Origin: Thermodesulfobacteriota bacterium
GTDB lineage: Bacteria; Desulfobacterota; Desulfobulbia; Desulfobulbales; JAGXFP01
DNA length: 64,000 bases
Assembly (NCBI GenBank): GCA_039714535.1
Contig: JBDLJC010000006.1
Span: 18,925 to 82,924 of the forward strand
Reading direction: 5' to 3'
The notes under the pieces were generated by a model. That model did not search any database. It was given only the letters and a program-made list of their open reading frames with translations, and was not told the DNA's origin. How positions within the stretch are numbered: position 1 is the stretch's first letter; the number at the start of each line of letters is the position of its first letter. The translations under genes were made by a program, and so were the position numbers. Positions 31,595 through 41,009 of the stretch are shown here, piece after piece.

Positions 31595-31615
31595 AGGTAA
31601 ATGAAACGTGTGCCA

Positions 31616-31706
31616 AAGATCTCTCACTTCGTTCGAGGTAAGCGAAGACTCCGAATGACATTTTTTTTTCTGTCCTCTCTAACGGCGAATCCGGAGAGAT
31701 CTTGTT
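31616..31706. repeat. Degenerate right and left halves of the TGTCATCTCGA/GGAGAGATCT palindromic repeat
   Basis: AAGATCTCTCACTTCGTTCGAG...ATGACA (31616-31660) and TGTCCTCTC...GGAGAGATCTTGT (31671-31705) resemble the arms at 39110-39196. Confidence 0.6.
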
Positions 31707-31782
31707 GTTGCTAGCGTTGCTGGACTTTCATTTCGCGAATTTAAACAACCACCGACTTCATGCCGATGGTTGTTTAGTTCTC

Positions 31783-36182: not shown

Positions 36183-37451
36183 ATGAAGAAAGCGTTAAGT
36201 TTTGCAGTTGCTCTTGGTTTGGTTGCTGGTATGGCTTCTTCTGCCGTAGCAGCCGATATGAGCTGGACGGGAGATGCCCGCCTCCGTGGTGTTTATAAGA
36301 ACAATACCACTGATGCGACGGACATCAACTTTGATCATATCCAGCATTTTGATCACCGTTATCGTCTCAATGGTACTGTTACCGTTAATGAAGATGTGAA
36401 GGTCAAAACTCGCATTGTCCTTGGCGATAATAAATTTGGTGGCGCACTGACTTCGGTTGCTGGAACGAACCCTTATGCCAATAGTGCGAAACTGAATCAC
36501 TATGTTGATCGCGCCTATATGGACATCAAGACTCTCGGCGGTACTGTCAGCTTGGGTCGGATGAACGCCAGCTGGGGCAATAAGTTTGCCGGTTGGGGTT
36601 CAACTGTTGACCGGATCAAGTATACCGGCAAAGCAGGTAACCTGACCTATGCTGCCTATCTCCAGAAAAGCATTGAAGACGATGCCATGACTATCGGCAA
36701 TGGTGATGGCGACAAGGATGTTTACGGTGCCTTGGTAGTTGGCAAGGCCGGCGACACCAAATGGGGTGTCATCGCTAACTACATCTATGATGACACAAAA
36801 GCTGCTTCTACTCCTGCAGGTGAATCTGCTGGCGGCTATCAGTTGGATGCTTTTGTTAATGCCAAGGCCGGACCTGCTAACGTCATGGCTGAGCTTCTGT
36901 TCAAGGGTGGTGATGCCAACGATAACGCTAATAAAGATGACTACTTCGGTGGTTTTGTTGGCGCGTCCATGAACATCACCGACCAGATGTCTGCTAAGGG
37001 ACTGATCGCATACTACGATGGCAACATGGGTGACTCCAGTCCATCTCGTGACTGCGACAACGATTTTGCTCCGACTCTGTTGATCGGTACCTGTAACGAG
37101 ACCGCAATCGTTGACTTTGGTGGCACAACCAATGACACCTCCGACAGCACCTATCTGATCGCAGGCGGGGCTGACATGAAGGTGAGCGACAAGCTCTCCT
37201 TTGGTGCCGGACTGGCCTACCTGATGGCTTCTGAGCAAGGTAACGATACCACTGGCCTCATCGGTCGGATAGACGGCGATGCTCCAGGGACACAGGAAGC
37301 AACCCTTGTCGAAGTGGACCTGACCATGAAGTATGCCTTGGCCCAGAATGCAACCTACTCTTTGGGAGTTGCTTACGGTATGGTTGATGGCTTCTCAGTT
37401 GCTGATGACGAAATGTTGGTTATCGGTAACAGGGTTGATGTTAAGTTCTAA
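36183..37451 (+). CDS. Major outer-membrane porin (beta-barrel)
   Basis: Strong SD AAGGAG, signal peptide (AVA-A), alternating beta-strand pattern, C-terminal VDVKF, strongly biased codon usage. Confidence 0.82.
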   Translation: MKKALSFAVALGLVAGMASSAVAADMSWTGDARLRGVYKNNTTDATDINFDHIQHFDHRYRLNGTVTVNEDVKVKTRIVLGDNKFGGALTSVAGTNPYANSAKLNHYVDRAYMDIKTLGGTVSLGRMNASWGNKFAGWGSTVDRIKYTGKAGNLTYAAYLQKSIEDDAMTIGNGDGDKDVYGALVVGKAGDTKWGVIANYIYDDTKAASTPAGESAGGYQLDAFVNAKAGPANVMAELLFKGGDANDNANKDDYFGGFVGASMNITDQMSAKGLIAYYDGNMGDSSPSRDCDNDFAPTLLIGTCNETAIVDFGGTTNDTSDSTYLIAGGADMKVSDKLSFGAGLAYLMASEQGNDTTGLIGRIDGDAPGTQEATLVEVDLTMKYALAQNATYSLGVAYGMVDGFSVADDEMLVIGNRVDVKF

Positions 37452-37485
37452 TTTCTATTAGCAGCTTAATTGATTTGCTCTTGAG

Positions 37486-37518
37486 AGGGGGCGGCCGAGA
37501 GGCCGTCCCTTTTTTTTT
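37486..37518 (+). terminator. Rho-independent terminator after the porin
   Basis: AGGGGGCGGCC-GAGA-GGCCGTCCCT followed by a T run. Confidence 0.88.
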
Positions 37519-37790
37519 GTGGCAAGAAGTGGCGCCTGCTTTTTTGTCATTAGAGTGTTGGAGAAAATCGTAAAATCTTCATTGCAATCTTAAACGCAGG
37601 ATTTCTCGTTCAACATGGGATGACAACTGGATAGGGGCCAGTTTTATCGTTTTGGTCCATCCCGCCATTAAAGCCTTTGCCTGTTTCCTGGACAAAATTA
37701 TCCAAAGTCATAAAAGCACTGGTCTAATCCTTTATTAATAATTAATATTGATGGCATGAGATGGGTGAAAACTTCAGCAGGAGAATAACC

Positions 37791-38339
37791 ATGCAAAAAT
37801 TATATCTGTGCTTGTTTCTGTTAATCCTGGTTGGCGGCTGTGCCACGCCGAGAGTCCCTTTCCCTGAGTCCGAACTTGACGGCCTGCAGCTTAAAGGAGA
37901 TAAAACAGTCAGGGGCCGGGTTTTTTTGGTTGACCAGCTTGAAGAAGAACAGATTGGGGCAGGTTTCGAAGTGACCTTGGAGCCGGTCTCTTCCTATAGT
38001 GACCAGTGGTATGAAGTTGTCTATCTGAATAATAGATCATTAAAAAAAGCTGATCCGCAATACAATAACTATGTTCTGAGAGTTGAAGCGGATGAACAGG
38101 GGAAATATATATTGAATAATGTGGCTCCTGGTGATTATTATCTGAGTAGCCCATTTTTCTGGAAGGCTATTACCTGCAGTGCCAATATTGCTACGACAAA
38201 GATATTGATCAGTAAGAAAATTTCCATAAAGGCAAGTGACAGAGTTTTGGAAATTCCGCTGACCAAGGAATTCACCAGTCCTACCCTTATCTGTGATCTT
38301 TACAATCAGGGTGACTGGGAAAAGGAAGATCCTTTATAG
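37791..38339 (+). CDS. Lipoprotein with carboxypeptidase-regulatory-like (transthyretin-fold) domain
   Basis: ATG at 37791 after AGGAG, lipobox VGGC, ADEQGKYILNNVAPGDYYL. Confidence 0.7.
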   Translation: MQKLYLCLFLLILVGGCATPRVPFPESELDGLQLKGDKTVRGRVFLVDQLEEEQIGAGFEVTLEPVSSYSDQWYEVVYLNNRSLKKADPQYNNYVLRVEADEQGKYILNNVAPGDYYLSSPFFWKAITCSANIATTKILISKKISIKASDRVLEIPLTKEFTSPTLICDLYNQGDWEKEDPL

Positions 38340-38353
38340 TGGTTTTTTGACCT

Positions 38354-39019
38354 ATGCCACTTTGGGAAGAAACAATTCCCCTGTTGAGGCAGGGGTATCA
38401 TAGGGAACTCGCCAATCTTGCCTACGGTCCGGCGGCAAGGGGTGAGAAGGTCTATCCGCCCCGGGAGCTGGTTTTCAACGCCATGCGTCTCACCCCCTTT
38501 GCGGAGGTGCGGGTGGTCATCCTCGGCCAGGATCCTTATATCAATGAGTTTAACGGGGTGCCCGAGGCCCATGGCCTCTGCTTTTCCGTTCGCGAGGGAG
38601 TCCCGGTTCCGCCGTCACTACGCAATATCTTCAAAGAAATTCAGATCAGTATCTACGGCGGTGAGCCCCAGGAGTTTTCTTCCGACCTGAGCCGCTGGGC
38701 CGAGCAGGGGGTCTTGCTCCTGAATGCCAGTTTGTCGGTCCTGGCCAAGCGATCAAATTCCCATGCCGATCTTGGCTGGCATAAGCTGACCGATAATATC
38801 ATCGAAATAATTTCCGCCAAAAACGAACATGTGGTCTTCATGTTGTGGGGCGCCTTTGCCCAGAAGAAGGCGCCCCTGATCGACCCGCGCCGTCACCTGG
38901 TCCTCAAGACCAGTCACCCTTCCCCCCTGTCGGCCCATCGTGGTTTCCTGGGTTCGGGAGTCTTCGTTAAATGCAACGATTATCTGCGGAAGCATGGCCG
39001 CGAGCCGATAGTATGGTAG
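38354..39019 (+). CDS. ung: Uracil-DNA glycosylase (family 1)
   Basis: VVILGQDPY, AHGLCFSV, VPPSLRNIFKE, GVLLLNASL, SHPSPLSAHRGF. Confidence 0.95.
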   Translation: MPLWEETIPLLRQGYHRELANLAYGPAARGEKVYPPRELVFNAMRLTPFAEVRVVILGQDPYINEFNGVPEAHGLCFSVREGVPVPPSLRNIFKEIQISIYGGEPQEFSSDLSRWAEQGVLLLNASLSVLAKRSNSHADLGWHKLTDNIIEIISAKNEHVVFMLWGAFAQKKAPLIDPRRHLVLKTSHPSPLSAHRGFLGSGVFVKCNDYLRKHGREPIVW

Positions 39020-39109
39020 GTGGAGGGTAGGTAGGTCTGGCCAGGTGCTGGACTTGCTGTTTCCTGCCATCTCGACGTTCTGTCTCTGTTATGTCGATCG
39101 CTTTAACTC

Positions 39110-39196
39110 TGTCATCTCGACCGCAGGGAGAGATCTTGTAACCGTGGAGTCTCTGGTATAGACAAGATCTCTCCAGCTTCGCCGTTCGAGATGACA
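39110..39196. repeat. Nested palindromic repeat upstream of the GIY-YIG gene
   Basis: TGTCATCTCGA (39110-39120) pairs with TCGAGATGACA (39186-39196); GGAGAGATCTTGT (39127-39139) pairs with ACAAGATCTCTCC (39162-39174). Both pairs are perfect. Confidence 0.85.
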
Positions 39197-39295
39197 AACG
39201 GGAGTGGAGAGCTGGTTGGTTAGTGCGGAGGGTGTGATGCCTATATGTTGGTATAACTGCCATTGATGTAATGGATGTTGGTGACGGTGGTTGGG

Positions 39296-39589
39296 ATGCG
39301 TGAAAGAATGTATTATGTCTATTTGCGGACTAACTGGAATAATGAAGTCATGTATGTTGGCATGACTAATGATCTTGAACGCAGGATCTTTGAGCACAAG
39401 ATCAAGGCTGTTAAGGGCTTCACTGAGAAATATAATGTAAACAAGCTGGTCTATTTTGAGCAGACTTCAGATGTTAATGTCGCCATTGCCAGAGAGAAAG
39501 AGATCAAGAAATGGCGGCGGGAAAAGAAAGACGCTCTGGTCAAACAGGTGAATCCTGATTGGCTTGATCTGAGTGATGATTTTCATTAA
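39296..39589 (+). CDS. Short stand-alone GIY-YIG nuclease (UPF0213/COG2827-like)
   Basis: YYVYL...MYVGMTNDLERRIFEH...FTEKY...LVYFE...AREKEIKKWRREKK...NPDWLDL. The track starts at 39275. Confidence 0.9.
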   Translation: MRERMYYVYLRTNWNNEVMYVGMTNDLERRIFEHKIKAVKGFTEKYNVNKLVYFEQTSDVNVAIAREKEIKKWRREKKDALVKQVNPDWLDLSDDFH

Positions 39590-39633
39590 GACAGCAAGAT
39601 ACCACCCCTCCTGTTATTTCGATTCTTCTTCTC

Positions 39634-39661
39634 TGTCATCTCGACCGCGGGAGAGATCTTG
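39634..39661. repeat. Left-arm copy of the same repeat, downstream of the GIY-YIG gene
   Basis: TGTCATCTCGACCGCGGGAGAGATCTTG is nearly identical to 39110-39138. Confidence 0.85.
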
Positions 39662-39712
39662 CCGTTGCCATCTTGTCACCGCGACTTCCGGATAATTTCA
39701 TCCCATTTAAAA

Positions 39713-40348
39713 TTAAACCTCTTCCCGATAGGGGAAGTCAGGATTATCCAGTAGTTTGCCAATCCGCTGTTTCTTGGCGGAGGTATTATTGTGGTATTCG
39801 ACCACTTCACCAATAACCTTGATGGTCTCTTCCTCATCGGCCTGGCGCACAACTCTCCTGGCTGCTTTGGGTTTGGGTCCGCCTTTGCCGCCCAGGTAGA
39901 TATCAAAACCCTGGCGGGTGGCGATGATGCCGATATCGGTCATGATCGGGTTGGAACAGGCGGCCGGGCATCCGGCAATGGCGATCTTGAACTTCGGTTT
40001 TACGCCTGCCATATCGCCGAATCTGGCCAGGATCCTGTCGGAAAGCGCCATGGTGTCGATCTGGCCCAGATTGCAGCTGCTTTTGCCGATACAGATCCTT
40101 GGTAGTGGGAACATCCCCGGCCCTTTAAGTCTGACTCCGAACGATATCAGTTCGTCTTTTATTGGCGCAAGATCAGACTCGGTGATATTATACAACCGTA
40201 GGTTCTGGGCGGTGGAAAGATAGAGGTCAAAGCTGTATTTTGCCGCAAGTTCATCTATTTTTTGCAGCACCGCAGCAGGCAGTGAACCGCCGGGGAGAAG
40301 GATGGTTAAGGTCCTGGGGCCGTATTTGTCTTTGTCGCCATGCATCAT
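39713..40348 (-). CDS. Small siroheme-[4Fe-4S] sulfite/nitrite reductase-like protein
   Basis: LPGG...LSTAQNLRL ferredoxin-like half; CIGKSSC and KFKIAIAGCPAAC ligand motifs; DIGII, GGKGG. Confidence 0.78.
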   Translation of the reverse strand: MMHGDKDKYGPRTLTILLPGGSLPAAVLQKIDELAAKYSFDLYLSTAQNLRLYNITESDLAPIKDELISFGVRLKGPGMFPLPRICIGKSSCNLGQIDTMALSDRILARFGDMAGVKPKFKIAIAGCPAACSNPIMTDIGIIATRQGFDIYLGGKGGPKPKAARRVVRQADEEETIKVIGEVVEYHNNTSAKKQRIGKLLDNPDFPYREEV

Positions 40349-40580
40349 ATCACCAGAAGTAAGTGTTATCTGTTTTTGAAAATTCTGTTCAATTATGTCG
40401 GTTTGATTGACAGAAAAATTCGAGATTATAGCCGATTTTTAAAAAAAGTGTGGAGGAATCCCTTAACTCCGTTTATTAAGGTGTTTCATATTTATCGAAA
40501 GTAAACATGATGTTGGACTTTAAGGGTGATCTGTGCATCGCTGGAGAGACACCCTTGGTTAAATACTTTGGAGGGTAATC

Positions 40581-41009
40581 ATGGGTGGTCACAGTCATAA
40601 TCCATACCGGGCCGATGCTGCAGCCAGTAATTCTATCGATCGCAAGCGTGAGCAGGAAAGGCGCTTTATGCTGCAGGCCGCTTTCAGGAACAGCGAGGAG
40701 TTGGCAACCAAGCTGGTCCAGCGTCTCTTGGATCAGCACATTATTGAGGCCACCTCTGTGGATGGTATTCGTGAAGCGATAAGTGATCAACTGCAAAAAG
40801 TTTCGGAGCTGGATGAGCACGATTTCAATTTCAAGATCGCTCCGATCAGACAACTGGTTCCCAACCCCAATTTTTTAAGCCTGTATATAACCCAGTACAT
40901 AATTGAAGATCTGATTGATCACCGTGATATCGAAGATATCTTCGGTGAAGAGGGTGATATCTATCAGGTGGTTGATTCTATTCTCGGTTCCCTTCGTTCT
41001 CAGCGTTAG
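40581..41009 (+). CDS. Hypothetical protein (142 aa)
   Basis: GGAGG SD, protein-like composition, ends 5 nt before the radical SAM gene. Confidence 0.75.
   Translation: MGGHSHNPYRADAAASNSIDRKREQERRFMLQAAFRNSEELATKLVQRLLDQHIIEATSVDGIREAISDQLQKVSELDEHDFNFKIAPIRQLVPNPNFLSLYITQYIIEDLIDHRDIEDIFGEEGDIYQVVDSILGSLRSQR

Follow-up and report, generated by a model that had tools for sequence, protein, structure and literature searches.

A predicted Ssn-family GIY-YIG nuclease gene and its flanking hairpin repeats between ung and a NIR_SIR gene of a Thermodesulfobacteriota bacterium

Does a small nuclease gene that lies among palindromic repeats in the genome of a Thermodesulfobacteriota bacterium belong with these repeats, and is the combination a mobile element? 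The question is raised by a 64,000-nucleotide stretch of DNA (the window; C6:18925-82924 of a 3.35-Mb assembly of 79 contigs with 49.6% G+C), in which a 693-bp gap between the convergent genes ung and NIR_SIR holds a single open reading frame (ORF), encoding a predicted GIY-YIG nuclease, and three copies of a hairpin-forming repeat unit. The original prediction for this locus was a selfish module in which the nuclease acts on its own flanking palindromes, comparable to the repetitive extragenic palindromic (REP) repeats and their RAYT transposases ('REPtron'). Our analysis indicates that gene and palindromes do belong together, and the likely explanation is that a nuclease gene of the Ssn family, accompanied by cognate hairpins of a class outside the published motif, was inserted here once and has been kept since. 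In the following, G000 denotes the genome studied here, G001 to G011 the relatives with which it was compared, and L-numbers individual homologue or repeat loci.

The ORF is located on the forward strand at 39275-39589, with the 97-amino-acid (aa) form beginning at the ATG at 39296 (39296-39589), and its only domain is Pfam GIY-YIG (PF01541, E = 1.2e-14, residues 12 to 84 of the 104-aa ORF), which bears out the 97-aa GIY-YIG gene described initially. Single-domain GIY-YIG proteins of about 94 aa constitute the Ssn family (cd10448), whose members bind a hairpin repeat only as single-stranded DNA (ssDNA), recognise just one of its strands, and make their cut a few nucleotides upstream of the hairpin (PMC11893778). 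The assumption that no link between short GIY-YIG proteins and repeats had been established is thus outdated, and the notion of an under-described system has been overtaken as well: Chenal et al. (Nat Commun 2025) found ssn genes to be typically flanked by repeats, called the NTS-ssnA-NTS layout similar to that of an insertion sequence (IS), and already drew parallels to REP/RAYT and IS200/IS605, with movement not shown (PMC11893778). A 2026 preprint uses SsnA-associated repeats as a benchmark repeat class. Literature searches brought up no later work on Ssn and repeat mobility, and none that combined GIY-YIG with "repetitive extragenic palindromic".

As a proxy for SsnA of Neisseria meningitidis we used a gonococcal region flanked by the NTS repeat, which was located by tblastn against a plasmid collection (matches in two N. 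gonorrhoeae records, 2.17 Mb each) and which contains seven canonical NTS inside 1.7 kb. The 97-aa protein aligns with this region without gaps over 89 of 94 residues (73.6 bits, 39% identity over the full length); the estimated E value of ~1e-14 for one proteome lies below the threshold used by Chenal et al. for SsnA homology (E < 1e-10 per genome, at least 75% coverage), and the protein is also within the size range of Ssn (single-domain GIY-YIG, ~94 aa, under 150 aa). The residues YVY (7-9), YVG (20-22), R29/R30, H34 and E67 of the 97-aa form are identical in the gonococcal sequence, and by analogy to the GIY-YIG superfamily the conserved tyrosine, arginine and glutamate residues would be catalytic. 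The N. gonorrhoeae record NZ_CP119142.1 (L109), which is filed as a plasmid and with 2.17 Mb is evidently a chromosome, contains an ssnA-like frame that lacks an in-frame ATG where the N-terminus aligns. No specific family model was found for the nuclease in NCBIfam, and a PDB sequence search returned no solved close relative, the sole relative being a weak match (E = 0.07) to the UPF0213 or YhbQ-type GIY-YIG proteins (e.g. BH0048, PDB 1zg2), which are of the same size and fold class. A gene of the UPF0213 type is also present in this genome (C23:42775-43026, 32% identical to the nuclease). A free-standing GIY-YIG homing endonuclease, which would have a separate DNA-binding domain and a target in a conserved gene, was considered and rejected, as there is no second domain, the score with TIGR01453 is 22.6 bits against a cut-off of 56, and the site is intergenic.

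The repeats at the locus are copies of one unit of ~30-35 nt, CTGTCATCTCGA-(interior)-GAGAGATCTTG, built of GTC, a 5-bp stem ATCTC...GAGAT around an interior of 11-16 nt, and a following C. The interior is CCGCAGG in the short form and ACGGC-NNN-GCYGGA, with its own mini-stem, in the long form, and the complete series GTC-ATCTC...GAGAT-C is found at 39111-39135 (+), 39166-39195 (-) and 39635-39658 (+). Upstream of the gene, a short-form unit U(+) (TGTCATCTCGACCGCAGGGAGAGATCTTG, 39110-39138) is followed by a long-form unit U(-) (39162-39196, minus strand, inner mini-stem CGGC-GAA-GCTG; with E = 3.8e-10 the top nhmmer match in the genome), and these two inverted copies together make up the hairpin doublet at 39110-39196. 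This nested hairpin, described at first as perfect, is near-perfect: the inner arms are complementary at 13 of 13 positions, the outer arms at 13 of 14, and the interior is asymmetric (2 nt versus 8 nt). Folded as ssDNA the doublet reaches -22.8 kcal/mol (z = -4.6), and none of 200 shuffled sequences was as stable. Downstream of the gene there is a further short-form U(+) at 39634-39661 (+), identical to the left arm apart from a 1-nt deletion; the full 29-mer unit had no match in 100 shuffles. Besides the full units there are half-sites on the plus strand, TGCCATCTCGAC at the left edge of the inserted block (39065-39076) and a degenerate one of ATTTC type at 39612-39625 (TGTTATTTCGATTC), both noticed before, and an additional degenerate one at 39087-39099 (TGTTATGTCGATC). 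With at most one mismatch, TGTCATCTCGA occurs five times in the window compared with 0.98 expected, a number that no shuffle reached. Runs of 5' half-sites upstream of full units, such as the one at 39065-39110, are found in many homologue loci, where GTCATTTCGA is the commonest 5' half.

Evidence for a pairing of nuclease and repeats comes from relatives of the gene. Among 3677 homologues of the nuclease (E < 1e-5) we surveyed the 80 best loci from named genomes, which are 62-79% identical and span more than 15 phyla, with members in Desulfobulbaceae, Syntrophaceae, Nitrospirota, Chloroflexota, Planctomycetota, Firmicutes, the candidate phyla radiation (CPR) and others. Flanking units, scored by the plan GTCA-YYYC...GRRR-TC with complementary arms within 400 bp, are present at 73 of the 80 loci, at 64 of the 80 both before and after the gene, and their density of 4.64 per kb near the gene contrasts with 0.18 per kb beyond 1 kb, which is a 26-fold local enrichment. 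The arms of these units covary. When only GTCA and the next four bases were fixed and the 3' arm was then read without being presupposed, the table of 5' against 3' arms was nearly all diagonal: ATTTC was matched by GAAATC at 202 of 263 sites, ATTCC by GGAATC at 52 of 65, ATCTC by GAGATC at 46 of 57, ATTCT by AGAATC at 20 of 23 and ATCCT by AGGATC at 11 of 16. The two findings settle the check that had been proposed for the original prediction, namely whether homologues are flanked by covarying GTCA-ended palindromes. In-frame stop codons occur in two of the 80 homologues (L060 and L094), which are probably pseudogenes.

As judged from the sequences, arm type follows protein clade. The paralogues of the nuclease in relatives (41-45% identity) form one clade with the Neisseria sequence (100% SH-aLRT, a likelihood-ratio branch support) and carry ATTCCGGC arms, being flanked by GTCATTCCGGC...GCCGGAATC at -60 and +20; L008 is flanked by ATTGC units, and a Firmicutes/cyanobacterial group by ATTCT or ATCCT units. 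UPF0213-like paralogues in the relatives have no flanking units. On a quick protein tree, poorly resolved with its 91 columns, the dominant arm type requires 21 changes compared with 26 to 30 in 200 label shuffles. The flanking, the arm covariation and the clade-matched arms indicate that the nuclease/repeat pairing is real and clade-specific, so the idea of a nuclease paired with its own hairpins stands.

Compared with the known Ssn repeats, the units at this locus share the plan and differ in the stem. The NTS repeat is CGTCATTCCCGCGMAVGCGGGAATCYRG with the hairpin CGTCATTCCCGCG..GCGGGAATC, and belongs to a general class named Ssn-related motif (SRM); the GTC before its palindrome governs cutting and the C after it governs binding (PMC11893778). 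GTC-(ATTCCCGCG...CGCGGGAAT)-C in NTS thus corresponds to GTC-(ATCTC...GAGAT)-C here, the stem being ATTTC/GAAAT in most relatives and the interior either unpaired or a mini-stem. An oriented GTC, a hairpin palindrome and a C on both sides of the gene, as in the SRM, are found at the locus, and the protein type, the flanking repeats on both sides, their dispersal in genomes of the genus and the clade-specific hairpin are likewise shared with Ssn. Two differences concern the arrangement of the nearest units, which is inverted here relative to the usual layout, and the very low copy number in this genome.

Several observations weigh against assigning the locus to the Ssn system. The published SRM pattern, HGTCWYN(0-2)YYVSBRHN(0-5)WNVSBRGN(0-2)RNCYNB within 500 bp on both sides, has no match at the locus, and its 19 matches in the genome are to be compared with 9-22 in simulated genomes; it also matches at only one of the 80 homologue loci. 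The pattern gave seven matches in the 1.7-kb gonococcal locus used as a control. Because none of the units described here is found by the published pattern, membership in the repeat class rests on the generalised plan. The hairpin of a single unit is thermodynamically weak (approximately -3 kcal/mol, z ~0), and the case for the unit stem therefore depends on the covariation. Moreover, 40 of the 80 homologue loci have the usual (+,-) layout, with U(+) a few to ~20 nt before the start codon and U(-) just past the stop codon, whereas the layout at our locus is of the minority (-,+) type (8 of 80 loci; also in the Desulfobulbaceae locus L039), with the GTCA ends of the nearest units pointing at the gene and spacers of 99 nt upstream and 44 nt downstream. 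The copy number is low: a profile search with nhmmer found ~12 units in the whole genome, and the strict pattern GTCAYYTCGA...GAGARATC is confined in G000 to the three units at the gene, the ~9 dispersed copies being diverged. Finally, congeners without a detectable gene of this clade contain 31-80 units, their assemblies being fragmented metagenome-assembled genomes (MAGs).

How did the gene and its units come to lie between two convergent genes that, as had been correctly recognised, are unrelated? The left neighbour encodes a uracil-DNA glycosylase (38354-39019, +; Pfam UDG PF03167, E = 2e-17), the right one a small protein resembling sulfite/nitrite reductases (39713-40348, -; Pfam PF01077 and PF03460). 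With ung orthologues as an anchor, the filled site was found in G000, G007 (protein 86% identical, same units) and G002 (81%, with a contig break inside the gene). The comparison with empty sites that had been called for revealed that the gene is not syntenic in all relatives: only 58 bp lie between ung and nir in G005 and only 10 bp in G010; G009 and G011 have a different gene at the site, and G006 has other genes. These empty sites indicate that a block of ~600 bp (~39066-39679) represents an insertion in one sub-lineage, the intergenic DNA being too diverged between species to fix its exact boundaries or a target duplication. The block absent from the empty sites is bracketed by an 8-bp direct repeat, TGCCATCT, whose first copy comprises the first 8 bases of half-site 1 (39065-39072) and whose second copy is at 39666-39673 (+), with a rough estimate only of its chance occurrence; it may be a target-site duplication, or merely half-site-like sequence.

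Since its insertion the gene has apparently been kept. Between G000 and G007 its synonymous divergence (dS) is 0.74 with a ratio of nonsynonymous to synonymous divergence (dN/dS) of 0.10, much like that of ung (0.97 and 0.076), which argues for vertical inheritance and purifying selection on the gene. The U(+) at 39110-39138 is identical at 29 of 29 positions to three copies in G007, while the loop of the doublet and the spacers are unalignable; this indicates either constraint on the units or gene conversion between them. Downstream of the orthologous gene in G007 (C275, L002), positions 1803-1970 contain a diverged second copy of the last ~80 bp of the gene and the following U(+), which represents either a duplication in tandem or what is left of a second cassette.

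Elsewhere in the window there is a pair of units at 31.6 kb. The copies reported there are indeed present as a tail-to-tail pair across an A/T run of 9, and are diverged rather than identical: a long variant at 31614-31660 (-) with a 17-nt insert after GTCAT (TGTCATTCGGAGTCTTCGCTTACCTCGAACG...), and TGTCCTCTCTAACGGCGAATCCGGAGAGATCTTG at 31671-31704 (+; nhmmer E = 3e-8). The insert (TCGGAGTCTTCGCTTAC) can form a small stem of its own, and the long variant also occurs at C3:67.7k (67.75k) and C62:7.1k (7.12k), in G007 and in the Desulfobulbaceae MAG locus L039. No clean empty site was found among the orthologous sites of this pair, as G005 and G002 have an extra 240-aa gene there and the contig of G007 breaks. 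To the right of the pair, 65 nt at 31717-31781 match ~80 nt inside the ends of at least eight G005 contigs and many G006 contigs; this stretch is a member of another, assembly-breaking repeat family. By eye, most of the dispersed copies in G000 are without the GTC or without the C after the stem. A separate repeat of ~130 bp has ~12 copies in G000, including C3:87871-88008, C12:61789-61919, C10:20532-20659 and C48:14040-14165, and is also met beside unit doublets in G005 (L120, L129).

Unit numbers vary widely within the genus. Counts of ATYTC-type, ATCTC-only and NTS-like units were 3, 3 and 0 in G000; 12, 10 and 0 in G007; 117, 3 and 24 in G002; 80, 1 and 22 in G001; 70, 3 and 35 in G005; 62, 44 and 1 in G006; 35, 11 and 2 in G003; and 31, 1 and 8 in G004. 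Four genomes of three other genera in the family had no ATYTC-type units, and controls with reversed patterns gave 0 in every genome counted. The expectation that repeat number would correlate with nuclease presence holds for NTS-like units, of which there are 22-35 in G005, G001 and G002, where the matching paralogue is present, and 0-8 in the five other genomes; it fails for the clade of our gene, as ATYTC-type and ATCTC-only counts do not track its presence within the genus. This missing correlation is a weak negative, because fragmented MAGs easily lose repeat-flanked genes. Three doublets in G005 (L126, L128, L137) lie inside larger palindromic elements resembling miniature inverted-repeat transposable elements (MITEs), with outer inverted repeats TTCGCAAAAAGTCGRG, and the one at L137 is interrupted by an NTS-like doublet. 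The orthologous sites in G000 are short and empty (C11:17017-17078, C5:20372-20384 and C62:16976-17059); the absence of the doublets from these clean sites indicates that repeats were moved or removed within the genus.

Such presence and absence patterns are also what would be expected if the block was a present or recent autonomous mobile element, with the GIY-YIG protein as transposase or homing enzyme and gene-less doublets as its miniature derivatives. We regard this as the most serious competitor of a single insertion of an Ssn-type gene, and nevertheless as unlikely. It would readily account for an ung/nir site that is filled in three congeners and empty in two relatives, for the at least three loci at which G005 doublets have no counterpart in G000, for the five gene copies in G002, and for a usual layout in which the gene lies inside a doublet, U(+)-gene-U(-); the occurrence of 62-79% identical homologues in more than 15 phyla, when congeners have only 41-45% identical paralogues, implies horizontal transfer. 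The bracketing by the 8-bp repeat would fit as well, as would the ssn cassettes of L029 and L034, which are flanked by a second copy (81-87 bp, 84-86% identical) of the 3'-terminal part of the host gene upstream, with its stop codon, and the analogy to IS elements had been raised by Chenal et al. However, no Ssn is known to transpose or home, and the occupation of one site in three species, with a dS of 0.74 and a dN/dS of 0.10, fits long vertical inheritance. There is one gene copy in this genome, its units are mostly diverged, the number of units in this clade does not go with the presence of the gene, and the 8-bp repeat, being half-site-like, may be something other than a duplication. A still-active mobile cassette is not required by anything at this locus, and the active selfish module of the original prediction is not supported for this genome, where the same site is shared by three congeners, the gene is under purifying selection and the dispersed members of only ~12 units are diverged. 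A more speculative idea, which we think has a rather slim chance of being correct, is that the hairpin-bounded ssn cassette is a minimal autonomous element of ~350-600 bp whose ~95-aa nuclease moves both the cassette and gene-less doublets; the copy between ung and nir would then have been domesticated and immobilised, and dispersed targets would have been mutated at the bases needed by the enzyme.

L029 (1850-2420) and L034 are from Hydrogenophilales and Sulfuricellaceae MAGs and have an hsdS-like type I restriction specificity gene beside the cassette. On a plasmid of Planktothrix agardhii (L110; NZ_LR882964.1, 18.8-19.1 kb), an ssn-like gene of 57% identity, accompanied by ATTCT/ATCCT units, is located between an MmeI-type restriction-modification gene and the DISARM gene drmA, a defence-island setting.

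The comparison with REP/RAYT that prompted this analysis holds for the architecture and not for the enzyme. As in REP/RAYT systems, a single-copy gene is flanked by palindromes that are also scattered between genes, the units form inverted doublets like REPINs, and recognition of hairpins on ssDNA is presumed. In contrast, TnpA-REP is a Y1 transposase of the HUH type, whereas the protein at our locus is solely a GIY-YIG protein of unrelated fold and chemistry, and there is no sign here of an enzyme that spreads repeats. Because GIY-YIG proteins are hydrolytic nucleases and not HUH tyrosine transposases, neither a covalent intermediate nor strand transfer would be expected. Similarly, IS200/IS605 elements (TnpA Y1, with subterminal hairpins) are small hairpin-bounded cassettes with strand-specific recognition of ssDNA and cutting away from the hairpin; here, however, there is no HUH/Y1 protein, and the ends are inverted copies of one unit instead of distinct left and right hairpins.

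Alternatively, the hairpins might act mainly as RNA, as a terminator, an mRNA stabiliser or in translational control of the nuclease gene, with the link to the nuclease being secondary. In the majority of homologue loci, the end of the upstream unit is a few to ~20 nt away from the start codon, so that in the usual layout its purine-rich 3' arm (GGGAGAAAT), which resembles a ribosome-binding site, sits where such a site would be; covariation of the arms is equally consistent with an RNA stem, and the doublet lies between convergent genes. At our locus, on the other hand, no unit is placed beside the start codon, the spacer being 99 nt, and the doublet is not followed by a T-run; relative to genes, units are found in either orientation. 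A terminator and promoter scan passed over the doublet as not terminator-like and found no sigma-70 promoter in the spacer, and an Rfam scan of 37000-41000 returned only a chance-level hit to sX14 (E = 0.27; its 23 bits compare with a gathering score of 80) and hence no known RNA family. A strand test by G.T versus A.C stem mismatches had only 11 informative units. In addition, characterised SsnA binds the DNA hairpin and does not bind RNA (PMC11893778). A main role as RNA thus seems improbable; an RNA-level role may exist alongside in the common layout, but for our locus we do not favour it. That ordinary intergenic REP- or MITE-like repeats happen to lie beside an unrelated small nuclease gene, as such repeats gather in non-coding gaps and other repeat families exist in this genome, is very improbable and effectively excluded by the clade-matched and covarying arms, the 26-fold enrichment beside homologues in more than 15 phyla and the restriction of strict-pattern units in this genome to the three at the gene.

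The favoured explanation, a single insertion of an Ssn-type gene with its hairpins, would work as follows. The enzyme would recognise a short hairpin on ssDNA, on one strand only, and the flanking repeats would be its cognate recognition hairpins, a divergent class of the Ssn-related motif. By analogy to characterised homologues it would bind ssDNA and cut 5' of each unit; on the top strand the cuts are predicted immediately to the left of 39110 and of 39634, and on the bottom strand immediately to the right of 39196. The two inverted units make up the large hairpin at 39110-39196. The block of gene and units, ~600 bp in length, would have been inserted into the ung/nir interval in an ancestor shared by the three congeners and would have been vertically inherited and kept functional since then. 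Extrapolating from the same homologues, the enzyme might trim or restrict single strands that carry units in the course of transformation, replication or repair, and local recombination would be a by-product.

The partnership of Ssn enzymes and hairpins has been known since 2025; added here are a hairpin class that had been missed, arm covariation that follows the protein clades, filled and empty sites, and signatures of selection on both gene and units. The partnership thereby extends to a large and very conserved clade with 62-79% identity over more than 15 phyla, and because the hairpins of this clade (GTCATYTCGA...GAGARATC) are not captured by the published search motif, the association is probably underestimated by the existing counts of flanked genes. 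The locus itself offers a clean natural comparison, with filled and empty sites, an enzyme under selection, units that are identical across species and dispersed copies that have diverged. In terms of applications, each nuclease/repeat pair is a candidate ssDNA nuclease that would cut with a new sequence specificity.

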